A stretch of 64,000 nucleotides of DNA. Origin: Thermoproteaceae archaeon. Lineage in GTDB: Archaea > Thermoproteota > Thermoprotei > Thermoproteales > Thermoproteaceae. The position numbers and the translations under genes are program-made. The DNA lies in contig JAJHRB010000002.1 in the NCBI GenBank assembly GCA_020833025.1, positions 1 through 64,000 on the forward strand, read 5' to 3'. The notes beneath the pieces are model-generated. The model saw nothing but the letters and a program-made list of their open reading frames with translations. It did no database searches and had not been told where the DNA came from. Shown here in pieces: positions 44,321-56,826 of this stretch; the stretch's first letter is position 1; each line of letters starts with the position of its first letter.

Positions 44321-44328
44321 CTTTTAAG
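44321..44328 (+). promoter_or_regulatory. TATA box of tRNA-Leu 5' half
   Basis: CTTTTAAG 22 nt before G1 at 44350. Confidence 0.7.
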
Positions 44329-44349: not shown

Positions 44350-44407
44350 GCGGGGGTGCCCGAGCCAGGTCAAAGGGGCGGGCGGGTGGTTAATGGGCGC
44401 CTCCCGC
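44350..44407 (+). tRNA. Split tRNA-Leu 5' half (positions 1-21, 44350-44373) with trailer
   Basis: GCGGGGGTGCCCGAGCCAGGTCAA then AGGGGCGGGCGGGTGGTTAATGGGCGC; no anticodon or T-arm follows. Confidence 0.9.
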
Positions 44408-45010
44408 TACTCTCCACTTACTATATTATCTCCCGGGTTTCAAAGCGCTTGTACATATCCCCTGGCCGCCGCGGTAAACGCCAGTAGCCCCCTGGAGCGG
44501 CATACCCGTCTTATCTCGCGCCGCCACGAGAGTCCCCTCGTAGGGGCATCCGGGGGTGCACCACTCGGGCGGCGGCGTGTATTCGACCCTCTGCACACGC
44601 CGAGCCTCTGCGGAAGCTCGAAGACTAAGGCGGCCCTGAGCCACTTCGGCTCATGCCTCTATCCGCCGCGCTCATACCCTCATCCGCCTCGCCGCGTTCT
44701 CGACTCTCTCGACGACCGCTCCGGCCGCCTCCGCCAGGCAGATAAGCATTCCGTAACTCCCTGCTAGGTAGCAAGCCAGAGGGACGCTGCGGCCAGAACC
44801 CAAGGGCTCCCACCCGCGACAACCCTCCTGTTCCCCTCAAGGGATATCCAAAGCCCTCCTCGCCGCGGAGGCCGGGATAAGCGCCGTGTTTGTGATGGAC
44901 GCATGGCATGAAAATTACCTGTCGTTGGCGAAACGTTATCCTGTAAGTACGCGGGCGTCTCGACGGGTTACAGCGCTAGCATCTTCACCATAACGCTGAG
45001 GGAGCAGAAG

Positions 45011-45613
45011 GTGTATCTAGACGTGGGAGGGGATCCCGGCTACCCCTCTGGGCCGGTGGTGTTTGCCGCCGGCTTCTACGGCGATTACGCCGTGGCGAGG
45101 TATAAGGAGATGGAGATGAGCCCCATGTGTCCGCTCGGTTGCGAAACCGGCTACACAGCCGATGTGTATCTGGCGAGGCCCGTCTTTCAGAGCGACAGCA
45201 CAATCAAGCCGTTGTCGGCGCCGACTACACGCCAAACGACGCCGACGGGCTGAGCAGATTCTTCATAACAGCCAAACACATACTGGAGCTACTTAACCGC
45301 TAGACATGACTACTTGCTGTACCTAGACTCTTTCTACGTCGAGAAGAGCGTTAGCGGGATCGACATTTTCTCGGTGGGGATGCCGTGGCCTTTCGAGAGC
45401 TCCATAGCCGCAGACGGCAAGCTGACGGTGGGCATAGGGCAGGTACAACAGACGGTGTTGCTTGCCGTAGCCGAGGCCACATTGGATCCGGCCTATAAAT
45501 CTACAGACGACGTGGTGGGCCGGTACTATACGCCCGGCGTTGAGTTCAACGTGGAGAGCTACGACTCGCAAATCGCCTCGCCTCTCGTAGATGTGTATAC
45601 TGTGCCGCAGTAA
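45011..45613 (+). pseudogene. Interrupted gene for a probable secreted protein
   Basis: Protein-like ORFs 45011-45253 and 45314-45613 in the same frame, separated by stops. Confidence 0.5.
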
Positions 45614-45663
45614 TAAATCTATTTTTTCGCACTGACTTCCCCTGAGCGCAACATGGTTTTGCT

Positions 45664-47139
45664 ATGAGATTTCTCGCGAATGCGGCAGTGGTTGCTGTGT
45701 TTGCGGCTGTAGCGTTTGTCGCCGCGGCTGGGAGGGGGCCTGAGGGGGATGCCTACAGCTACGCGGCTCTGCACGTGACTCTTCATGGGAAGATCGCGGC
45801 GCTCTCTCATTACGACGTGCTGAAGACCACCGAGCCGCTGACCTGCTCGGACGGCGCCCGCAACTTCACGTGCCTCCTCATGAAGACAGACGTAAACCCC
45901 GTCTTAAACGAGCTGGGGAAAATAGGCGTGAGGCCTACAGCAACGCCCACTGCGCATAGGTGGGTCTTGGTGCTTGAATACAACTTTACAGAAGACGCCT
46001 GGCGCTGGCGCAACGTCACGGTGCTAAAAAGCTGGGAGCTCAGGTGGAACAACGAGACAGTATACCTCCTCCAGGCGCAAATTAAGAGGTCGCTGGGCGA
46101 AATGGTGAGGATAAACAGGGAGCTCTCAGAGACGTTTTTCGGGCGGCGGGAGCTGAAGAATATAACCGCCGTGGCTGTACACGCAGATAAAATTGCCGTA
46201 GGAACCTCTAACGGCACGGTAACCAACGGCAGAGGCAAGCCGGACCACAGGACAGTAGGGAGAATAAGGGAGCATATTAAGAGAAAATACGGCGACATGG
46301 TCGTTGAAGTATACTACACAACTGGAGCAAAGCCTCTAGTAGAAATGGCTGGAGATTACCCGGTCCTTACGGACTTTAACTCATTCGGGCAGTACAAGTA
46401 CGAGGGCGGCGCTGCGTGCACTCTCGGCTATCTTGGCTATCTCTACGGCGATCCTAACCTGCCGGCAGTAATCACCGCGTGGCACTGCTTCGGCTTCGTG
46501 GGTACGGACAGAACATCGCCTTACACGGCACGTATTTCCTTCATGACGCCAAAGTGCGTACTGTGCAGTATTACGGCTCCAAGCGATGGCTTCCTCAACC
46601 CAGGCCCATACTATTGGTGGGAATGGTACATTAAGCCCATGCTTTTTGTACAGTCCGACTCTGCGTTAATAGGAAAGGCTAATGATCCAAGCTATTTTGA
46701 GAGGCTGGGCCTGAAGTTCGGCTACATAAGGGGGGCTGACGGTAGTAGTGACCTGCCGATCATGTTACAACTGTCGAAGTACGATGTGAAAGAGGGGGAT
46801 TCCTTATGGATAAGACTGGGCCGTTCGGGCGTGGTGAGCAAAAATGTGGTAAACTCGCTTTGTGCCAGCTTTCTACCTCTACCTGATTTTATCCGGAGCA
46901 TCTTTGATCCTTCCGTGTATTACATACCCGCGTTGAGTTGCCACACCAGGCTGTCAGCCGGCACTTATGAACCCGTGCCAGGCGACTCCGGCTCGCCAGT
47001 CTATAGGCTCCGCATAGGTTCAGATTACAGGTATGCAGTAGTAGATGCCTACGGCGTTCTCTCTGCTGAGGAGTGGACTAAGGAGGTATACGTGGCTGAC
47101 ATAAGTTGGATTTACGTAAAGGTGTCATGGCTGGGTTAG
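45664..47139 (+). CDS. Secreted chymotrypsin-like (S1) serine protease with N-terminal pro-region
   Basis: Signal peptide; CTLG, ITAWHC (His), SDSALI (Asp), PGDSGSP (Ser). Confidence 0.85.
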   Translation: MRFLANAAVVAVFAAVAFVAAAGRGPEGDAYSYAALHVTLHGKIAALSHYDVLKTTEPLTCSDGARNFTCLLMKTDVNPVLNELGKIGVRPTATPTAHRWVLVLEYNFTEDAWRWRNVTVLKSWELRWNNETVYLLQAQIKRSLGEMVRINRELSETFFGRRELKNITAVAVHADKIAVGTSNGTVTNGRGKPDHRTVGRIREHIKRKYGDMVVEVYYTTGAKPLVEMAGDYPVLTDFNSFGQYKYEGGAACTLGYLGYLYGDPNLPAVITAWHCFGFVGTDRTSPYTARISFMTPKCVLCSITAPSDGFLNPGPYYWWEWYIKPMLFVQSDSALIGKANDPSYFERLGLKFGYIRGADGSSDLPIMLQLSKYDVKEGDSLWIRLGRSGVVSKNVVNSLCASFLPLPDFIRSIFDPSVYYIPALSCHTRLSAGTYEPVPGDSGSPVYRLRIGSDYRYAVVDAYGVLSAEEWTKEVYVADISWIYVKVSWLG

Positions 47140-47603
47140 TACGTGATTATAATACAAATATCTTTTTAAAATATTTTATCATTTCTTTAATATTATTTTA
47201 TGTAATAAATTTAATTTACATAAGGCATGCAACCACCAGCCCCCGCGTAATGGCGTGGTGTCTGTCTGCCACAATCTTTCTCCTACCTCCGTTGCTTTCG
47301 TTGCTTTTATTACGGCAACCTACTGCAGCCAGAGTTTACTTTCACCTTGCTGTAAATATTTCTGTACTTCTTCTCATGTCCAAAGTTTATTCATCATCTG
47401 GCATTTTTCTTATGAAATGCATAGAAGGTTATTGCGAGGAATTTCTAATAAAATGCATAGATATTAGAGTGGCGCCAGCATTAAGCACAGGCCTAGGCCT
47501 TCTGCTCGGCGCAGCTGCCATGCATAATTACGAGAGGAAAACCAGATATGCGTACTATGTAGCAATTATGCTGTGGATTGTTATTGTCGTTCTAACTTTC
47601 TAG
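47106..47603 (+). CDS. AT-rich multi-TM membrane protein
   Basis: About four hydrophobic segments; overlaps protease stop; strongly atypical composition. Confidence 0.65.
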   Translation: MDLRKGVMAGLVRDYNTNIFLKYFIISLILFYVINLIYIRHATTSPRVMAWCLSATIFLLPPLLSLLLLRQPTAARVYFHLAVNISVLLLMSKVYSSSGIFLMKCIEGYCEEFLIKCIDIRVAPALSTGLGLLLGAAAMHNYERKTRYAYYVAIMLWIVIVVLTF

Positions 47604-48449
47604 CTTTGTAGTTGCAATGGCTCTCTACAGAGGATATGTCAATCATCAACAAGCTCGCTGAGGCCGTGGAACGTGGGTCAATGCCTAAAGGTACGCAGTT
47701 TAGGCCTATAGATTTTTGACCTTCATAACATTATTTTGTTGATTCGGAGCAGGAAACGGAGTTTAAGACGGCGCCTCGTTGATTTGACATATTTGTTTAG
47801 CTGGGCTGTGGGCTGAGAAGCCACTTATAGCCGTGACGTCTATTTGGGTGCTTCTATGTGCATTTGGAGGGTTAGGTCTCTCGGGATCTGGGCTTGGTGG
47901 GTAGCAGTAAGGCAGCTTGCGGCAGGTTCCTCCGCCGCCGCGGCTATTATTCGCCGATCTGAAACCGGCGTCCAGAGCCGCTGTATACCGCCTCGCTGTT
48001 GATATGTACTGTCTCCACGGCATATGTAAGCTACTTAAGGAGATACTTGAAACATAGGGGAATCACAGTTAAAAAAATGCCAAGTCCCCCGCCGTCTTCA
48101 TCCCGTTGCTGCTTTTAAATTGTTACCCATAGAAGTTTTTGTGGTCCTTGCCATGATGCGGGTTCCCCGGCGTGGGCGGCCACGGCTCAGCTGGGCAGCC
48201 TAGCCATCTGCCGAGCTTATTCTCTGGACAGCCATGTACGACTTAGGCATTAATCGCGCTAATTGATTCGGCGGCCTTTATGATGCTTGTGAGGGGAAGT
48301 GCTGATGTTGTCAGAACGCCTGTTGATACAAGCCGCCAAAAAAGACGAGAGAATACGCAAAACTCTCACCCAATTCCTCGAAGAAAAACTAAAGACGGCG
48401 GAAGGCAAAAGAAAAGAAAGAATCATACACGCCCTGAACCAACTAAAAA

Positions 48450-48457
48450 CTTAAAAA
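48450..48457 (+). promoter_or_regulatory. TATA box of tRNA-Leu(TAG) 3' half
   Basis: CTTAAAAA about 24 nt before the leader. Confidence 0.75.
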
Positions 48458-48482
48458 CGTCACACTAGAAGAAAAACGCCCC

Positions 48483-48568
48483 AACCACCCGCCTGCCCGC
48501 CCAGAGGGGCAGGGTTTAGGTCCCTGTGGCGTAGGCCTGCGTGGGTTCAAATCCCACCCCCCGCACCA
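48483..48568 (+). tRNA. Split tRNA-Leu(TAG) 3' half (positions 22-76 from 48505) with leader
   Basis: AGGGG-CAGGG-TT-TAG-GT-CCCTG, long variable arm, T-arm, CCCCCGC-A-CCA; leader AACCACCCGCCTGCCC complements 44376-44391. Confidence 0.9.
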
Positions 48569-48691
48569 CCCTCCTCCGGGCACTCCCTCCGCGGGTGGCA
48601 GCCCGGCACGTGAGGCGAAGTAGAGTGCCTTCAATTCTAGTGCCTCTCCGTGCGCGTGAAAGATTTTAAAAGCTGCCGCCACGTCTTAACG

Positions 48692-48842
48692 GCGGCGGTA
48701 GCTCAGCCTGGTTAGAGCACCCAGGGGCGCCGCCCCGTGTAGGAGTCTGGCCGCGGAGGCCGCGCGGCCGGGCGGTGCGGCTCATAACCGGGGGGACCCG
48801 GGTTCGGGGAGTGCCCGCCCAGAAATCCCGGCCGCCGCACCA
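48692..48842 (+). tRNA. tRNA with CAT anticodon (probably elongator Met), introns at 29/30 (48723-48742), 30/31 (48744-48779) and 56/57 (48806-48822)
   Basis: Each intron forms a BHB; mature stem CCCGG/CCGGG; lacks initiator features; Ile2 not excluded. Confidence 0.85.
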
Positions 48843-49856
48843 CTCTCTCAGAGCATGGGTTACGCACAGCGTGCGGCAACTCCCCCTGTCTCGGCATTCC
48901 GCCTCTTGCCCTCCCTGTTAGACAGCCTCTCCTCCTCCCTGCGCCCCTTCTCCAGCTTCTCCATCTCCCTCCTCTGCCTCTCCAAGTGTTGTAGTACGGG
49001 TATCTGCGGGCCCGCCTCATCGCCTCGCCTCCTTCTTCACCAGCTTCTCCAGCTCCTTCACAGCTTTCAAAAGATCCGCAGCGGGGCCTGGGCCCTGCAT
49101 GGCGCGAGGGCTGCGTCCTTCACAACTTTCAAAAGATCCGCTGTTCGTGTAGTCGGGGCGCAGGTAAGCGCCGCCTTGTGGCGGGATTGCGTTTTAAAAG
49201 AATTCGTTACTGCGAGACTAGGATACTGCAGAAATCAGTCTTCTGTCTGTAGACAGAGAGAGTGAGCTTGTGCTTTTCCAGACGCCTTACGAGTCGGGGC
49301 GGCCTCACCCTGTGTTGATATACGGCAGGAGGAGAGTGGACAGGACATGGCTGGTTAAGAAGCTTCTGAGGGGGGGTCTTTACTTTTACGCCCAGAGGAG
49401 GTCTCTGCACGACGAGCTTTCTCGGGCCCTCCCGACCCGAGGGTAATTGCTGTTGTTACGTATTGAGAGAGTATTCCGAGAGCCGCCCCTGGCAGCCAAC
49501 GGCGGCACGGCAGATGCACGTACAAGGGAGCACTGCGGCTAGGAAGGGCGCGGTCCTCTAATGTAGTATCGAAAGTTATTAAGTCTAGGCTTACCTAACC
49601 CTTACCAGTACCATGCAGAGGGCGGCAGAGATTTCTCTTTACTAAGTTCAACATGGTGCTCCGTGCACGGCGGTGGTGTACAAGGCGCTCTCCGTGGCGT
49701 TTAAGGCGTAGGACGGGGGCTGGCGACGGGCACAACGCCGTGAGGGGCAGGCCCGAGGTGCTTGAGCGGCAGACATGGCTGAATACGCTGGGGAGCTCTC
49801 CTACGCGCCAGGCGGCATCGCCGTAATCCCAGGCACAGTTTAAACTGCCGGATCCG

Positions 49857-50141
49857 GTGGAGGGGTTGTTGAGGGAGCGGCCTGAATTAGGCGTCTTCGG
49901 CGTGGAGTGGGTTAGGGCGTGGATTCACGTGGGGGAGAGGCTGGTGGAGGTCGCTCGTGTGTCGCGGAGGCTCCCGCGGGCGGTCGGGGTAATCAAAAGC
50001 AAGCCCGTGGACTGCATCCACCCCTACACGCTGGGAGTGTTACGTGGCCGGGAGCGGATACGTGGGAATCCTCTAGTCTGCGCCCTCATGCTAGTCCGGG
50101 CTGTGCTACCGGGGCTCTCTGGCGGCGTTAATGCAGATTGA
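49857..50141 (+). pseudogene. Probable fragment of a hypothetical gene
   Basis: N-part protein-like, C-part looks out of frame. Confidence 0.3.
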
Positions 50142-50148
50142 TTTTTCT

Positions 50149-50370
50149 TCACGTGACCCAGACGTTGGCCCTCCTCAGGTGCTCTACGAATTCCTCCAGC
50201 CCGAGCCCCGAGACTTTCTGGGAGAGACGGAGGTTTCCCGTCTCTATGAAGAGCTTGATTGCGGCTCTCACCCTCGGCGGCAGCGAGTTTATATAGTTCC
50301 AGTCTGCCTCCCTCCTTCTGAGCTCCCTGGCCTCCCTCTCGCGGTCGATCAGCTCCTGCAGTCTCTCCAC
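50149..50370 (-). CDS. UPF0175-like antitoxin, copy 2
   Basis: HTH-like tail (LSQKVSGLGLEEF); overlaps PIN gene end. Confidence 0.75.
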   Translation of the reverse strand: MERLQELIDREREARELRRREADWNYINSLPPRVRAAIKLFIETGNLRLSQKVSGLGLEEFVEHLRRANVWVT

Positions 50371-50852
50371 CTCTGGATATCTCTCTGTGGGAATTTATGT
50401 TTTGTCTCCTCCTGATACGTAAAAATCGCGTCGTCGGGAACCAGACCCCTGCTCCTAAGCTCCCATAACACTTCGTATGCCCTCCAAACCCTCGCGGTGG
50501 TGTAGAGGAACTGCGCGGCATACGCCGCGCCGTTTTCAGACAGCGCAATGTATCCTCTGTCCTCAGCCACCGCAATGCAGTAGGCTTCGGGAAAGTCGAG
50601 CCCGCGAGTGGGCCCGCGGCGGCTCAGCTCCACCAGCCTCAGGGCGCGGTCGCGGTACTCGGGCAGGAGGGGAAATAGGGACATGTCCCCGGAGGCTAGG
50701 CGGTCGGCTATCCACATGAGGGTCCTCTCGCTCTGCACCTCATTTAGCACGTCCTCCGGAATCCACACGACGCGGAACACGCGGAAGAGGAGATCCCTGT
50801 GCGAGAACCTCGCCCAGTCTACCAGGAACGAGGTGTCCGCGATGGCCTCCAT
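50349..50852 (-). CDS. PIN-domain (VapC-like) ribonuclease
   Basis: IADTSFL, VLNE, LDFPEAYCIAVA. Confidence 0.85.
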   Translation of the reverse strand: MEAIADTSFLVDWARFSHRDLLFRVFRVVWIPEDVLNEVQSERTLMWIADRLASGDMSLFPLLPEYRDRALRLVELSRRGPTRGLDFPEAYCIAVAEDRGYIALSENGAAYAAQFLYTTARVWRAYEVLWELRSRGLVPDDAIFTYQEETKHKFPQRDIQRWRDCRS

Positions 50853-51070
50853 TAATTCACGTGGGGTATTCCCGCCCTGATGCGCAGCTCGTTAAACTCC
50901 TCCACTCTAAGCCCCGCGATTTTGGCAGCCACGTAGAGGTCCCCGGTCTCTATGTAAAATACTAGTGCCGCCCTGAGCCTTGGCGGCAGCGAGTTTATAT
51001 AGTTCCAGTCTGCCTCCCTCCTTCTGAGCTCCCTGGCCTCCCTCTCGCGGTCTTTGAGGTGCTCCTCCAC
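50852..51070 (-). CDS. UPF0175-like antitoxin, copy 1
   Basis: AAKIAGLRVEEF...RAGIP; stop overlaps PIN start. Confidence 0.75.
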   Translation of the reverse strand: MEEHLKDREREARELRRREADWNYINSLPPRLRAALVFYIETGDLYVAAKIAGLRVEEFNELRIRAGIPHVN

Positions 51071-51301
51071 GGGAGTGTGCGGCCGCGTAAATAAGTGGAT
51101 GCGGAGCCATGGAGGGCCTCGGGGCGGCTGCCAATATCTTGAAAGCGCAATAATCGAGTGCGGATTGATGCGCGGGCTGCCGCATTTCGCGCAGCGGTGC
51201 TAGTGTGCGCTATGAGAGGCGGCACTCACTATACAAAATTAAAAATAATTAAAAATAATGATATTATGACATTTATATTGTCGCGGGCAAGCCGCCTTGA
51301 G

Positions 51302-52123
51302 ATGCAAAAAGTTCGCATTATTACAAAATCCCTGGGGGGAGAGCCTCTCATTACAGTTTACGCGCTGGAGGCGGGCGGCGCCGCCATTGTCATCGATCCC
51401 GGGCCCGCGTCGCTCCACTCGCCGCTGGAGGCAGACGCCGTGCTGTGCACGCACCTGCACCTCGATCACTGCGGGTCTGCCGGCTACTTCGGCGCGCCGG
51501 TTTACGCCCACGAGAGGTACGCGGCGCACCTGCTCGACCCGTCGAGACTGTATGAAGCCGCCAGGGCCGTGCTGGGGCGGTATGCAGAGGCGTGGGGTGC
51601 CCCGCCGCCGTGCAAGAACGCCGTCGGCGTGAGCGACGGCGCCAGGCTCTTCGGCGCGATCGACGTGCTGCACGCGCCCGGCCACGCCCCGCACCACGTC
51701 GCGTACTACTGGAGGGACGGCGGGGTCTTGTTTGTCGGCGACGGCGCCGGCGGGTACATCCCGGAGCTGGGCGCGGTAATTCCCGTGACGCCGCCGCCGT
51801 TCCGCTTAGACCTCTACCTGCAGTCCCTCGAGAGGATGAGGGCGGTCGGCGCTGGCGCCATCTGCTACTCGCACTATTCCTGTACGCGCGACGTCGAGCT
51901 CCTCGAGGCGCACCGGCAGCAGGTGAGGGCGTGGGCCGAGGTCCTGGGAGAGAGCCCTGACATATCGCTAGACGAGGCGTTCAAGCTCCTCGCGAGGGAG
52001 GATGAGAACGCCGCCAGAGTACTTGCAGCCGGCGGCATTTACGCCGACCTCTACCTGCGGGTCAGCGTGCTGGGGTTTCTTGACTACTTGCGGAGGGCCA
52101 AGCCGCCGCACGACTGCCTTTGA
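51302..52123 (+). CDS. MBL-fold metallo-hydrolase
   Basis: THLHLDHCG, APGHAPHH, VGDGAG, YSHY. Confidence 0.9.
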   Translation: MQKVRIITKSLGGEPLITVYALEAGGAAIVIDPGPASLHSPLEADAVLCTHLHLDHCGSAGYFGAPVYAHERYAAHLLDPSRLYEAARAVLGRYAEAWGAPPPCKNAVGVSDGARLFGAIDVLHAPGHAPHHVAYYWRDGGVLFVGDGAGGYIPELGAVIPVTPPPFRLDLYLQSLERMRAVGAGAICYSHYSCTRDVELLEAHRQQVRAWAEVLGESPDISLDEAFKLLAREDENAARVLAAGGIYADLYLRVSVLGFLDYLRRAKPPHDCL

Positions 52124-52491
52124 GATCTCGCGCGCTCGCGTTTGGGAGGAAAAAGAATGGAGTCTTGCCTCGCCGCCCGCGCTTATCGGCGAGAATCACG
52201 AGCGCCGCCGCGGGCCGCCACCGCCACAGCCCACGCGATTGCGTGCAGGGCGTGGCCCGGCATTTCGTGTCTTCTGGCGCAGAGCCCCCTGATGCAGGAA
52301 TCCTGAAGGGGGCGTCAGTCCCCCGCCCCGCGCCCGCGGCGTTCCGTGTCTGCACCGAGGACGGGGCGCGGAGGCTCCTCCACTTCAGCGACGCGCTGAC
52401 GCGACTGCTGCAGGCTGACGGCCGCGCCTTGCAGCCTCCTCAGCGTTGAACTAAATGCCGGCCGGGCCTGGCGGAAGCCAGAAGTACGGAC

Positions 52492-52603
52492 TGGAGCCCC
52501 GGCCGGGATTTCTGGGCGGGCACTCCCCGAACCCGGGACCTCCGCCCGCGAGGCGGCCTACGGGTCTGCAGCCCGCCGCTCTACCGGACTGAGCTACCGG
52601 GGC
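52492..52603 (-). tRNA. tRNA-Cys(GCA) with introns at 45/46 (52540-52557) and 56/57 (52512-52528)
   Basis: Cloverleaf after removal, U73 discriminator, CCA. Confidence 0.92.
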
Positions 52604-52627
52604 TTGCGCGCCCTTGCGCGGCATCTT

Positions 52628-53407
52628 TTAAGCTTTGTCCCCGGCCTCCCAGTGCCCGGCGCACTGCGCCTTGCAGCGCCCGCGCGCCTCCGGCTGCCTG
52701 CCCGCGCGCTCGCTGACAGGTTCCAGAGCTGTTTTGGGCCTGGCGCGGGCGCGCCTTATCATGTAGTAGCCCCAGCCGCTCGGGTGCCAGTGCGCCTCGC
52801 CCTCGAGGACCTCCACGGACACCAGCGGGCTCTCGACGACAAAGCTTTCATACTCGCCCCCCTCGCCGACAGGCGAGAAGCCGTAACGCCTGCTGAGCGC
52901 GATTATCTCCTCGGCGACCTCCGGCGTCACGACCCTGCCGAGGTGGGAGGGGCCCAGCCCCAGCGCCATCACGGCCACTACCATGAAGCGCATGGCGCTC
53001 GCCTCCTCCCTCAGCAGCCTCTCGGGGTCGCGGCCCCACAGCGGCGCGACGTGCTTGAGACCCAGCCTCTCGGCAACTGCGTCGACGCGGCTCTTCTGGT
53101 ACCTCGAGGCAACGGCTCCTGACACGAGACCCTCGATCCCGCGCCCGCGCTTGATTCCCCTCAAGGCCTCCGCCAGCTCCTCCACCTCAGCCTCCTTGAC
53201 CCCGCTCACCTCGACGAAGTGGTGAGGCATCCCCACGGCCTCCCCGTGAAGGGCGCTCCACCTCACGTTGATCGAGTGGAACATGTAGGAGTCGGGCCTT
53301 CCCGGCACGGCCGTTATGAGGCACGCCACCTCGAGACCCGCCTCGAGCGCCCTCATCAGCGCGTAGTGGCTGTCCTTGCCGCCGGTGTACAACACGGCGA
53401 CTCTCAC
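52628..53407 (-). CDS. Diphthine--ammonia ligase (Dph6 family)
   Basis: YTGGKDS, SYMFH, GAVASRYQ, GEGGEYES. Confidence 0.92.
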   Translation of the reverse strand: MRVAVLYTGGKDSHYALMRALEAGLEVACLITAVPGRPDSYMFHSINVRWSALHGEAVGMPHHFVEVSGVKEAEVEELAEALRGIKRGRGIEGLVSGAVASRYQKSRVDAVAERLGLKHVAPLWGRDPERLLREEASAMRFMVVAVMALGLGPSHLGRVVTPEVAEEIIALSRRYGFSPVGEGGEYESFVVESPLVSVEVLEGEAHWHPSGWGYYMIRRARARPKTALEPVSERAGRQPEARGRCKAQCAGHWEAGDKA

Positions 53408-53494
53408 GCGCGAGTCTCGCCCTGCCGATAAATGCTGCACGCCGGGCAAGCGCCGGCGCGACTCGGTAGCCGGAGGGAGTGCCCGGCAGGAAGG

Positions 53495-53580
53495 TGGTGC
53501 GGGGGGTGGGATTTGAACCCACGCAGGCCTACGCCACAGGGACCTGAACCCTGCCCCTCTGGGCGGGTGGTGGCGGGCGC
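53495..53580 (-). tRNA. Split tRNA-Leu(CAG) 3' half (positions 22-76 from 53558) with leader
   Basis: Identical to the TAG half except anticodon; leader GCGCCCGCCACCACCCGCCCAG; TATA CTTAAAAA at 53605-53612. Confidence 0.9.
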
Positions 53581-53847
53581 TGTCGTGCCCTCGACGGGCT
53601 TGTATTTTTAAGCTTTCACATGACCGCCAGCGCCATCCCTCCCCCACCTTGCCGCGCTTCAGAGTGTCTGTGCCAGGTGGCAGGCGCGGGCTGGCCGGGC
53701 TGCCCTCCCGCCAGCGACGGCATTTGCGCGCACAGCGGCACAGCACAAAAACAGCAGAAAGGCGCGGGGCGCGCCTCTGCGCGGGGATTGCGGTCAGTGA
53801 GCGACCCTGCCGCCTCCGCGGTACCTAACGCAGCTTACCGCGTCGCT

Positions 53848-53874
53848 CTGACCCCCGCCCTGAGGGGCAGGACT
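53848..53874 (-). mobile_element. Solo IS200/IS605-type end hairpin
   Basis: CTGCCCCTCAGGGCGGGGGTCAG. Confidence 0.55.
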
Positions 53875-53994
53875 CTAAGCCGCGCGCTCCCAGAGTTCCG
53901 GAGACTCTGGAGAGGTGGGCACCCAAGAGGCTCAGGAAAGAGAATGAGATATATGTGGAGGTGGTATGGAAAAAAATTTGTGAGTTGGTTTTAG

Positions 53995-54640
53995 GCCTTT
54001 ACAATAAGTTCGTACTTCTTGGTGCAGAACCACAAGTACTTGCACTCAATGCCGGGCTCCTTGAGCCTCATCTCGGCGTCCTCAACAGTGGCCGGCGGCG
54101 GCACGACGGCCGGTCGCCGGCTTCCAGTCGGCGGGCGTGGCGTAGCCGCACTTGCAGCTTAACTGATCGCGCCTACTACGCGGAGGATCTCGTCGATGTT
54201 CCTGCCGTTGTTGTAGGACACGCGCGAGCCAGGCAAGCTTTAGGTCTGGGTCGATCAAAGCTACTACCTAACCGTCGCGTGCTGCTTTGGCGGTATCGCG
54301 TTGAAGAGAGACGCGACCTTCATGCCTATGTCTGCAATTATGGAAACGGCACCTCGACTCTAAATGCCGCTCGATATGCCTCTTCCACTCGATGCGGCAG
54401 TATACCGTGTCTACGCTGAGGCCGAGAAGCTCGATGCCTCTCTTTCTGAACTCCTCATACTTCCTCGAGAACGCGACGAACTCGGTGGTACACACTGGCG
54501 TGAAGTCGCCTGGGCGGCTGAACAGCAGCCACTCCCTGTAGTCGCGGAAGCGCCTCTCGCCCCATGTCCGTCTTGAGGCATAGATCTTCCAGTATTTTCA
54601 TCCCTAGGAACATTTCTACCCGAAATTACCTCAAACGTCG
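53995..54640 (-). pseudogene. Peroxiredoxin pseudogene
   Basis: [40 protein letters not shown] across several frames with stops. Confidence 0.85.
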
Positions 54641-55103
54641 TTTCTTTCAGCCTACGTCACCCCGGCATGCTGTGTGAGACCTCTCATCGTACACCGTATT
54701 CTCAATCGCTATTACTGAGCCATGCGGTCCTCACCGTCATTGCGCTCGGGAGTAACGCCGATGGGCGGCACCTCTCAATATTTTGCGGCCAACAAACAGG
54801 CAGGGGAATTACTACGCGTGGATAGAGACGCCACACCATCGTGGCTGGTGCTATCTCCCTGCCAGGGTCCGCCCCCGGCGATTCTCTAAACAAAAGACGA
54901 GAAATCAAGCTCCCGAGTCAGCACCTGGTGTACGCGGTGTCGGCAACTGAAATTGCAGGCAGGAGGCACTCTCAAGCCCTGGAGGGCAAGAATAGGGGCA
55001 GCAGGCAGCACCCGCCACCCGCCCCTTTGACCTGGCTCGGGCACCCCCGCCTTGCCTTCACTGCAGCACTTGCACATAAACTTTTCGCCCCTGTTGTGCG
55101 GTC

Positions 55104-55280
55104 TCACGCAGGGGGGGTGAGCATGCTCAGCGCCATTAAGGCAGCCGCGATTGCGACCGAGATTATGACGGCGGCTCTCGGCGTTAGCCTAATCCTCTCG
55201 AGCTCTCCCTCCTCGCTGAACTTTATGAGCCCTGCCGCCACGAAGGGGTTGAGGCCCTCGTACCTTCTCCTCCGCGCCAC
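55104..55280 (-). CDS. Preprotein translocase subunit Sec61beta/SecG (58 aa; absent from the ORF track)
   Basis: RRRRYEGLNPFVAAGLIKFSEEGELERIRLTPRAAVIIS plus TM. Confidence 0.88.
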   Translation of the reverse strand: MARRRRYEGLNPFVAAGLIKFSEEGELERIRLTPRAAVIISVAIAAALMALSMLTPPA

Positions 55281-55311: not shown

Positions 55312-55362
55312 TCAGCCCATGCGAGTGTCTTCAACGCTCCGGCCATCGGGGTTTCTCATCAC
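55312..55362 (-). ncRNA. C/D-box sRNA, probable 16S 5'-domain guide
   Basis: GTGATGA...TTGAAGA...CTGA; guides complement CCAUGCGAGU and (C/U)AUCGGGGU, adjacent in archaeal 16S as I recall it. Confidence 0.8.
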
Positions 55363-55542
55363 CGCGGCGGGCCCCGCCGCGCGGATAAATGAGTTACGGG
55401 GCGGCCCTCCCCTGCCCGCGCCCCCTTTCATCTCCCCGCCGCACTCCGGGGGCCGGAGGCCCCGCTCACTAATCGCGGGGAGGGGCCGCGGCGGGGCGGG
55501 AGGCGCTGCCCCCCTCGGCCTGCCTGAACGCGCCAGCGCAGC

Positions 55543-56826
55543 TTAGGAGGCGGCTAGGCGGCTGGTCGGCGGCGCTGGGCGGGACCCCTCGCCCGGCGGG
55601 GGGCGCCCCTCCATGAGAGGGCAAAGCAATGGGGCAATATAAGCATCCGGGGAGGAAAAAGAGGGAGGATTTGCGAGTCTCATCAGCTCGTCAAACCTCC
55701 TCTGCGCCCACATTGCCGGCACCCCGTCCCTGTGCACCTCTAGGCCGCACTGCGCGCATTTAACGCGCCTCTCTGGCAGCTCCTGCATTTTCGCCCCGCA
55801 CCTCGGGCACACTGTGCTGAACAGCCTCGCCTCAACATAGGGAACGCCGTGCCACTCCGCCAGCCCCTCGATCAGCCTCCTCAGCCTACCGAAATTTAGC
55901 AGCGCCTTTCTCTCTGCTGGGTACTTGTTGTCTTGCTTGAGCTCTCTCATAGAGCTGTCGTCGGGGACGTCAACGACAATCGCCGCCTTGCGCTTTCTCG
56001 CGAGCCAGACGAGCTCCCTGGCGGCGCCCACCTCCCACTCCCTCAGCAGCCGCCAGAGCCTGCTCTTCGCGCTTCTTGCCATCTTGCAGTATGGATCCCC
56101 CCTCTTTGCACAGAGCGAGTCGAGCTCCGCGGCCCTCCTCTGCATGTGCACGATCTTCGAGACGTCGGGCCTCAGCGCGCCGCGCCTCAGCACCCTGTTA
56201 CGCTCTACAACAGCGTAGGTAATGCCGTTGTGCAGCGCGTTGAGGTCTATCGCGAGCACGCGCTTGGGCTCGACGGGCTCCACTTCGCGCCTGAAGACTA
56301 GAGCGATATAGAGCTTTGCAGCGCGGCTCCCGCGGCTCCGGCCGACCCACACCGCCGCCAGAACAAGCTTCGCGCCCTCTCTCACACGCTCTAAAATCTG
56401 CTTTGTGGCGTCCTCGCCCAGTGGCAGCGCTATCGTGCCGGTGCCGAGCTTCCTCACGCGGACCTTGCGTTTAGGCACGTCGGCGAGAACGCCTCTGCTG
56501 ACGTCTCTCTCATCGCTAAGTCTTAACTGGGCATCGAGAATTAGCGGCACCTTCATCCCGCGCTTAACAGCGTGTGCTCTTAGCCACTCGAGCATGTTCC
56601 ACGCGTGCACGAACTTTTGCGCGAGATATCTCAGCGGGTTTTCCTCCGGCATCGGTACTTTGCCGCCGCTTTTAGCCCACTCCGCCGCCCACCTCCTGAA
56701 CTCCTCCTGCGCCCTCAGAAGCGCGGGGATCTTCTGCTGCACCTCCGGCGGCAGCCCGAGGATGTCGTACTTGAGCAGCAGCGCCCTGTACGCCCTCCCT
56801 CTCATGCCGGGCGGCCGCCCGCGCAT
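55543..56826 (-). CDS. Stand-alone TnpB-like protein (RuvC plus Zn ribbon)
   Basis: VLAIDLN, AIVVDVP, CPRCG...CAQCG, HRD; no tnpA nearby. Confidence 0.85.
   Translation of the reverse strand: MRGRPPGMRGRAYRALLLKYDILGLPPEVQQKIPALLRAQEEFRRWAAEWAKSGGKVPMPEENPLRYLAQKFVHAWNMLEWLRAHAVKRGMKVPLILDAQLRLSDERDVSRGVLADVPKRKVRVRKLGTGTIALPLGEDATKQILERVREGAKLVLAAVWVGRSRGSRAAKLYIALVFRREVEPVEPKRVLAIDLNALHNGITYAVVERNRVLRRGALRPDVSKIVHMQRRAAELDSLCAKRGDPYCKMARSAKSRLWRLLREWEVGAARELVWLARKRKAAIVVDVPDDSSMRELKQDNKYPAERKALLNFGRLRRLIEGLAEWHGVPYVEARLFSTVCPRCGAKMQELPERRVKCAQCGLEVHRDGVPAMWAQRRFDELMRLANPPSFSSPDAYIAPLLCPLMEGRPPPGEGSRPAPPTSRLAAS

Follow-up and report, generated by a model that had tools for sequence, protein, structure and literature searches.

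Split transfer RNA (tRNA) genes are known from Nanoarchaeum equitans, Caldivirga maquilingensis and four Desulfurococcales, with break points at positions 37/38, 30/31, 29/30 and 25/26 and with halves that are shared in the case of Glu, Ala and Gly tRNAs (PMC4090602, PMC4033280). Among the class II tRNAs, no split representative is known (PMC4390854). Split genes are central to the debate as to whether tRNAs consisted of two pieces at their origin or were broken later. Here, we describe separately encoded tRNA-Leu pieces of a Thermoproteaceae archaeon, with two 5' halves and two 3' halves located in the stretch of 64,000 nucleotides that was analysed (“the window”; positions 1 to 64,000 of contig JAJHRB010000002.1, GenBank assembly GCA_020833025.1) and further 3' halves on other contigs. 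A literature search retrieved no report, including any later than these reviews, of a split class II tRNA or of a split in the D-loop, in agreement with the original prediction made from the window, according to which a D-loop-split tRNA-Leu is not known to have been described (PMC4390854, PMC4090602). With a probability of roughly 75%, these are genuine trans-spliced split tRNA-Leu genes; from the DNA, we infer that the pieces are transcribed, cleaved, ligated and matched to their partners.

The source assembly (G000) is a short-read metagenome-assembled genome (MAG) of 1.56 Mb in 126 contigs (93.9% complete, 0% contamination), which we take to belong to the Pyrobaculum lineage. BLAST searches of the whole assembly with the Leu pieces returned three Leu 5' starts and five Leu 3' ends, one 3' end for each anticodon. 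The only contiguous Leu gene is that for TAA, while TAG, CAG, GAG and CAA are without an intact gene in this 94%-complete assembly; the search for intact Leu-TAG and Leu-CAG genes, which the original prediction had named as a check, accordingly came back empty. The five Leu anticodons occupy five loci, and each complete genome of the genus likewise has five Leu genes, all encoded in cis. The following pieces make up the Leu inventory:

44350-44373, + strand: 5' half A (5A), tRNA-Leu positions 1-21 (24 nt), by BLAST and reading
55050-55027, - strand: 5' half B (5B), second copy of tRNA-Leu positions 1-21, exon equal to that of 5A, trailer different
48505-48568, + strand: 3' half Leu(TAG), positions 22-76, CCA encoded, by BLAST and by ARAGORN on the joined sequence
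53495-53558, - strand: 3' half Leu(CAG), positions 22-76, CCA encoded, by BLAST and by ARAGORN on the joined sequence
C102:3171-3234: 3' half Leu(GAG), by BLAST
C34:22705-22788: 3' half Leu(CAA), with its own leader and, in addition, a 20-nt anticodon-loop intron, by BLAST
C100:10812-10706: intact Leu(TAA) with one anticodon-loop intron, by BLAST

The reading of 44350-44373 as Leu positions 1-21 only, and of the two 3' halves in the window as positions 22-76, identical save for the anticodon, had already been proposed and is borne out. 5A comprises the 5' strand of the acceptor stem, U8, the 5' strand of the D-stem and the D-loop, and shows 100% identity both with the intact Leu(TAA) on contig C100 and with Leu genes of relatives; directly past 44373, the sequence departs from that of a tRNA and continues into a G-rich trailer. 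The sole difference between the TAG and CAG 3' halves is T versus C at anticodon position 34 (66/67 match). Overlooked in the original prediction were 5B, the GAG and CAA 3' pieces, and the intact TAA gene. The assembly itself invites the suspicion of an artefact, that is, of contigs from different strains or of a chimeric join, since it is a short-read MAG in which tRNA repeats break contigs and several tRNAs stand at contig ends. However, all six pieces have unique flanks and lie well within their contigs (16-67 kb), the GC content of these contigs (60-63%) equals that of the genome, contamination is 0%, and an artefact would not generate promoters and matched leaders, so that we regard this explanation as very unlikely.

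When the halves are joined in silico at 21/22, ARAGORN reports 88-nt tRNA-Leu(tag), tRNA-Leu(cag) and tRNA-Leu(gag), which have the long variable arm, the canonical cloverleaf and the Leu anticodons of class II tRNAs and whose exons equal those of the relatives' Leu genes. For CAA and TAA, ARAGORN misplaces the intron, and the anticodons were assigned by comparison with the Leu genes L025 and L034 of relatives. In their unjoined state, none of the Leu pieces in the window was recognised by ARAGORN or Rfam, and the Rfam tRNA search of the whole genome gave only a sub-threshold match, on the TAG piece. Standard tRNA finders overlook six out of six pieces, and a genome of this kind would be scored as lacking four Leu tRNAs.

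Because the motif AGGGGC is present in both halves, every position from 21/22 to 27/28 is a formal candidate for the joint. The joint is assigned to 21/22 on the grounds of the motif that places the cuts, the same layout in cis introns of relatives, and the intron-flanking bases in the relative G004 (GGTCAA|T... and ...CAG|AGGGGC), which permit this position only. The expected joined sequence across 21/22 reads GGUCAA|AGGGGCAGGG. The bulge-helix-bulge (BHB) has a central helix made up of G18-G19-U20-C20a and the four leader bases preceding the last two, which are GCCC in TAG, CAG and GAG (one U-C mismatch) and GACU in CAA (4/4 pairs), while the bulge of the 5' piece is AA|AG and that of the 3' piece AG|A, or CA|A in the case of CAA. 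For CAA, as for the cis introns of relatives, this helix is perfect. Both leaders in the window end in GCCC-AG before A22, as had been stated, and the complementary trailers and leaders together with the constrained fold described below suggest that the proposed relaxed BHB at 21/22 could form. Other joints, as well as BHB models based on the D-stem or on an AGCC central helix, were considered and rejected, the 5' cut falling within the exon. Of the enzymes, an EndA catalytic domain is encoded at C61:40360-40611 and RtcB on contig C60; in Crenarchaeota, the splicing endonuclease is expected to be of the (alpha-beta)2 type (PMC5829648). The RtcB match (C60:4614-7331, + strand) falls into two stretches inside one open frame of 961 amino acids, which suggests an intein.

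Elsewhere in the window, a C/D-box small RNA (sRNA) gene is present at 61688-61740 on the - strand (CUGAUGA … CCGA … GUGAGGA … CUGA). By reading, its first guide complements CAAAGGGGCA, across the tRNA-Leu 21/22 joint, and its second guide complements CUGUGGCGUA, in the anticodon stem and variable arm of tRNA-Leu; the CAAAGGGGCA target is perfect only in a joined tRNA or in the intact TAA gene.

The extensions of the halves by which partners would find each other are located as follows:

44374-44408, + strand: G-rich trailer of 5A, by pairing comparison and folding
54990-55026, - strand: G-rich trailer of 5B, by folding
48480-48504, + strand: C-rich leader of the TAG 3' half, ending in GCCC-AG, by reading and folding
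53559-53580, - strand: 22-nt leader of the CAG 3' half, without any difference from that of GAG on contig C102, by reading and BLAST

Within the 5A trailer, 44376-44391 pairs with 48483-48498 of the TAG leader over 16 bp including one G-U pair, which the pairing comparison reproduced as originally described, and 44395-44399 adds a further 5 bp. The 5B trailer pairs with the CAG/GAG leader over 14 bp (one G-U) plus 3 bp or, in another register, over 10+9 bp. Duplex energies of trailer and leader amount to -47.9 kcal/mol for 5A-TAG, -47.1 for 5A-CAA, -51.7 for 5B-CAG and -49.1 for 5B-GAG; non-cognate duplexes range from -38.5 to -46.2 kcal/mol, and shuffled leaders average about -30 to -33. No more than 0-1 of 300 shuffles was as good as the cognate duplex (0/300 for 5A-TAG). 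With both the cloverleaf and the BHB splice motif enforced, the TAG piece folds at -88.7 kcal/mol with 5A versus -74.6 with 5B, and the CAA piece at -100.4 versus -96.4, while the preference is reversed for the CAG piece (-72.4 with 5A versus -83.7 with 5B) and the GAG piece (-74.2 versus -83.0). These models point to 5A most likely serving TAG and 5B most likely serving CAG and GAG, with 5A probably serving CAA as well. The original prediction had assigned one 5' half, 5A, to both TAG and CAG; the 11+6 bp pairing of its trailer with the CAG leader is present by reading, but 5B fits CAG better, and in the modelled folds a scheme of two 5' and four 3' halves fits better than a 5A common to the two. 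Since the 5' exons are identical, cross-use between 5A and 5B may occur and would yield the same product.

Promoter motifs within the window were found at these positions (BRE, transcription factor B recognition element):

48445-48457, + strand: BRE/TATA ahead of the TAG 3' half, motif -58 to -60 relative to A22
53603-53613, - strand: BRE/TATA of the CAG 3' half, motif at -58
44321-44328, + strand: putative TATA of 5A, A/T box CTTTTAAG, ~22-29 nt upstream of base 1, by reading
55075-55086, - strand: putative TATA of 5B, A/T box AAAAGTTTATG, by reading

The strict BRE/TATA motif (AAA-N1-3-TTWAWWW), of which there are 165 occurrences on both strands of the 1.56-Mb genome, is present at -54 to -60 from A22 in 4/4 3' pieces, whereas the intact Leu(TAA) has it at -36 relative to base 1, a difference in spacing from which leaders of ~20-24 nt are predicted. 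Each of the six pieces possesses a putative promoter motif of its own. The TATA box that had been claimed for every piece thus stands in its strict form for the 3' halves, while that of 5A is weaker. The identity between the CAG and GAG units begins exactly at the predicted transcription start and spans the 22-nt leader onward, the 3' flank CCGGGCACTCCCTCCG is common to the TAG and CAG units with 100% identity, more than 25 nt of 3' flank are common to TAG, CAG and GAG, and the GAG and CAA units have promoter-proximal sequence in common. These shared leaders, flanks and promoter-proximal stretches imply that the 3'-half gene was duplicated in its entirety, with anticodons altered by single-base changes; to judge from them, the 3' pieces are duplicates of one another, which the original prediction had suggested for TAG and CAG based on their common flank.

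5A and the TAG 3' half are both on the + strand and colinear, with a gap of 4.1 kb, and 5B, on the - strand like the CAG 3' half, lies colinear with it at 1.47 kb upstream. This layout is also what would be seen if each pair were a single long precursor with a giant intron (4.1 kb for 5A-TAG, 1.5 kb for 5B-CAG), held together by long-range pairing and spliced in cis: strand and order are right for both pairs, the 4.1-kb gap holds a gene for 491 amino acids on the same strand as the pieces, and the trailers are without a strong oligo-T tract. Yet a consensus BRE/TATA precedes both 3' pieces at the distance expected for a 22-nt leader, and no 5' piece occurs upstream of GAG over the 3.1 kb to the end of contig C102 or upstream of CAA over 22 kb on contig C34. 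The CAA piece at least must be joined in trans because of this 22-kb distance, and a giant cis intron is, hence, excluded for CAA and probably excluded for GAG. We know of no archaeal tRNA intron of kilobase scale. For eukaryotes, tRNA intron lengths of 6-133 nt are given (PMC4090602). Overall, giant cis introns are an unlikely explanation of the two colinear pairs.

Under the favoured reading of split genes, the 5A and 5B genes would each yield positions 1-21 followed by a G-rich trailer, and the four 3' genes (TAG, CAG, GAG and CAA) would each yield a C-rich leader of ~22 nt followed by positions 22-76 and CCA. Trailer and leader would anneal over 16-21 bp, whereupon the 7-bp acceptor stem and the 3-bp D-stem could form in trans and the junction would take the relaxed BHB form. 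The splicing endonuclease would then cut at the bulges, and RtcB would join A21 to A22, resulting in class II tRNAs of 88 nt. For its origin, an ancestral short cis intron may be envisaged, the arms of which were separated by foreign or rearranged DNA, followed by duplication of the complete 3'-half gene, from promoter and leader through the exon to the 3' flank, which would have given rise to the other anticodons.

In most relatives, the Leu D-loop is uninterrupted, while G004, G010, G014, G015 and G021 (sister genus) carry a cis intron of 28-35 nt at the same D-loop site; in the complete genome of G015, 4/5 Leu genes do so. The intron arms of relatives, GGGGCGGG... and ...CCCGCC...GGCU-AG, are the same sequences as the split trailers and leaders, GGCU or GGCC being the partner of GGUC, and the intron of G014 shares 14 consecutive bases with the TAG leader. 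Pairing extends over 16-21 bp in the split pieces versus 6-10 bp in the arms of the cis introns, as expected if separate RNAs need stronger annealing. The DNA between and beside the halves comprises the following:

44410-48440: cassette between 5A and the TAG 3' half, 42-58% GC versus 63-70% background
45664-47139, same strand as 5A/TAG: gene for 491 amino acids in the cassette, 80 homologues, distant ones named S1 peptidase
47106-47603: conserved open reading frame (ORF) in the cassette, downstream of the 491-amino-acid gene
53620-54990: spacer between 5B and the CAG 3' half, 1.4 kb, GC moderately lower (56-62%)
55104-55280, - strand: Sec61-beta gene, 58 amino acids, just upstream of 5B (PF03911, E 1.2e-8)
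55543-56826, - strand: gene for a TnpB-like RNA-guided nuclease (IS200/605-type accessory), 0.5 kb upstream of 5B (PF07282)

The gap between 5A and TAG is a low-GC foreign cassette, and its 491-amino-acid gene is real and of wide distribution. The cassette ORFs are without a match in Pfam, NCBIfam and PHROGs and, by tblastn, in phage records, and where other metagenome contigs (L035-L038) carry a homologue of the cassette gene, no Leu pieces were found beside it. Sec61-beta adjoins the intact Leu(TAG) gene in relatives (tblastx to L006, L008, L009, L018 and L019), and from this retained neighbour it follows that 5B occupies an ancestral Leu locus; beyond Sec61-beta beside 5B, no synteny of the flanks with the Leu loci of relatives was detected. 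The TnpB-like gene, for which the NF040570 match is below the curated cut-off, is a possible agent of local rearrangement. The simplest history compatible with these sequences would be an insertion or rearrangement in the intron loop, after which the 3'-half unit was duplicated and dispersed. Inside both spacers, the leader/exon junction CCCGCCCAGAGGGGCAGG is found copied, at 53854-53871 (+ strand, 17/18) and 45040-45056 (- strand, 15/17), and these copies may be scars of rearrangement. A probable C/D-box sRNA gene (UGAUGA … CUGA, then T7) lies at 55312-55365 on the - strand, between the TnpB-like gene and Sec61-beta, with only weak sR28/sR43 matches in Rfam.

Partial tRNA copies may also be left at the ends of integrated elements by integrases that target tRNA genes, and such integration-site (att) duplications probably do account for Ser-like 3' partial copies in the same genome, which reach from the anticodon stem as far as CCA, repeat intact Ser genes of the same anticodon, and are without promoter or leader:

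C12:552 / C12:11372; C17:10521 / C17:96; C78:4350: Ser-like pairs, one pair 10.8 kb apart

The occurrence of these copies (C12:11372; C17:96 / C78:4350), a 35-nt Leu fragment in the relative G017 (C1:328718) and the low-GC cassette between 5A and TAG would all be in keeping with the same origin for the Leu pieces. The latter, though, show the opposite pattern: they have no intact partner, their anticodons differ, 5' pieces occur as well, the break falls on an intron position that shows BHB features, and searches of 44.4-48.4 kb with Pfam, NCBIfam and PHROGs revealed no integrase. An att origin of the Leu pieces is, consequently, most improbable.

Several points count against the interpretation as split genes. 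The exons are all identical and, hence, provide no measure of selection after the split; the part missing from a 126-contig MAG that is 94% complete could hold intact genes or more 5' halves; and exact-pattern scans of metagenome contigs and of genome contigs, with two patterns each, gave no independent copy of the junctions, the single match, in a gammaproteobacterial MAG, being due to chance. Concerning the RNA structure, unconstrained cofolds of cognate pairs do not recover the cloverleaf and are 6-10 kcal/mol better; for 5B with CAG or GAG, the stablest duplex register ties GCCC to the trailer and not to the exon; the central helix contains a U-C mismatch in 3/4 3' pieces; and the 5' bulge consists of 4 nt instead of 3, which makes the motif a relaxed one. 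Finally, both 5' pieces have weaker A/T boxes (~-30) that fall below the strict motif, and, by reading, no clear oligo-T terminator follows either of them.

The incompleteness of the assembly (126 contigs, 93.9%) and the uninformative exon identity would also suit the view that the pieces are dead, i.e., debris of recently broken Leu genes whose functional intact counterparts reside in the unassembled 6%. For dead DNA, however, it is hard to explain that a 3'-half unit was duplicated together with promoter and flank and acquired new anticodons. Furthermore, there is exactly one locus for each anticodon, as with the five genes of relatives, 4/4 3' pieces retain strong promoters, encoded CCA and complementary leaders, the pairing exceeds that of the ancestral introns, and the same pattern recurs in orphan pieces of other tRNA families. 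We consider dead fragments quite unlikely; a missing portion of the genome or a misassembly would leave the promoters, the matched leaders and the unit duplications unexplained.

The orphan pieces were revealed by scans for T-arm and acceptor sequences, and comprise many further candidate 5' and 3' tRNA pieces, which resemble Arg, Gln, Thr, Asn and Trp tRNAs and are accompanied by TATA boxes and by trailers or leaders rich in GC:

C31:372/93, C46:7391, C81:627/473, C89:28993, C13:7364, C19:711: orphan tRNA pieces
C89:466, C74:5818, C28:19283, C20:13302, C34:9003, C74:17519: orphan tRNA pieces

The whole tRNA set of the genome appears unusually fragmented. If this is true, then together with these orphan pieces the Leu halves would belong to the most fragmented tRNA gene set known in a free-living organism, and tRNA-Leu would be the first class II tRNA family to rely almost wholly on trans-splicing.

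In the window, Met(CAT) at 48692-48845 (+ strand) and Cys(GCA) at 52495-52603 (- strand) are intron-rich and have a near-identical T-loop intron, GGGGAGTGCCCGCCCAG; part of this intron, as its reverse complement, is also found as CCGGGCACTCCC in the flank shared by the Leu 3' halves. At 50076-50115 on the - strand, there is a tRNA-like 5' fragment (GCCCCGG-TA-GCAC-AGCCCGG…) which in sequence is close to the Cys gene at 52604, in the 5' part of the latter, and could be an orphan 5' piece or a decayed copy. A T-loop intron is likewise present in the Leu genes L031, L032, L030, L024 and L025 of the relatives G015, G010 and G013, and two different Leu genes of G013 have one and the same intron sequence. 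This is consistent with a spread of introns, or with gene conversion, between paralogous class II tRNAs, a phenomenon previously unseen (PMC4390854).

Among the closest described systems is C. maquilingensis (2009; PMC4033280, PMC4390854, PMC4090602). It is a free-living member of the Thermoproteales, its halves have their own promoters, complementary leaders and trailers and a relaxed BHB, one half can be common to several isoacceptors (the 5' half of Ala CGC/UGC; the 3' half of three Gly tRNAs), and its leaders are similar to introns that related species have at this site. In contrast, the Leu pieces belong to a class II tRNA broken in the D-loop at 21/22 and not at 25/26, 29/30 or 37/38, the 5' half exists in two redundant versions that differ in their trailers, alongside four 3' halves, one 3' half has a cis intron, and two pairs are still colinear around foreign DNA. 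N. equitans (Randau et al. 2005; PMC4390854, PMC4090602) shares the principle of separate halves with GC-rich complementary extensions, an endonuclease cut, in its case by an (alpha-beta)2 enzyme, and ligation, and has two Glu isoacceptors with a common 3' half. It differs in that its class I tRNAs are split at 37/38 or 30/31 in the reduced genome of a symbiont, and in that joining was shown there by reverse-transcription PCR and RNA sequencing, whereas for the Leu pieces it is predicted from sequence.

The splits of Desulfurococcales and the tRNA-Thr of Caldiarchaeum, where 1.8 kb separate the gene from a 5' fragment upstream, look recent and lineage-specific, stand beside rearranged or foreign DNA and have relatives with an intact or intron-containing gene (PMC3218864; PMC3293823), all as here; they concern, however, one tRNA per genome and not a whole isoacceptor family. 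The non-canonical cis introns of Thermoproteales (Sugahara 2008, Fujishima 2010, cited in PMC4090602, PMC8450103) correspond to the ancestral state, i.e., the D-loop introns of G004, G010, G014, G015 and G021, in which GGUC forms the H helix with GGCU or GGCC, while in the split genes each arm has a transcription unit of its own, at a distance of kilobases or on another contig. The “hybrid tRNA-Leu” of 2019 (PMC7080975) is an in-silico join of parts of Asn and Asp/Ser genes and is not comparable.

New in comparison with these systems are the tRNA class, the split position and the layout of two 5' and four 3' halves; this would be the first split tRNA with a long variable arm, would lift the stated exception for class II tRNAs, of which none is said to be split (PMC4390854), and would add a further split position. 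The intact gene, the short D-loop intron, and colinear halves around foreign DNA together with dispersed halves are all seen in one genus, and these stages constitute direct comparative evidence for the route from intron to split gene. The pieces also suggest that isoacceptors can arise via duplication of half-genes. In a broader proposal, to which we give even odds, half-genes act as units of tRNA evolution, with the 3' half copied and retargeted by single anticodon changes and two interchangeable 5' halves equipped with diverged “address” trailers.

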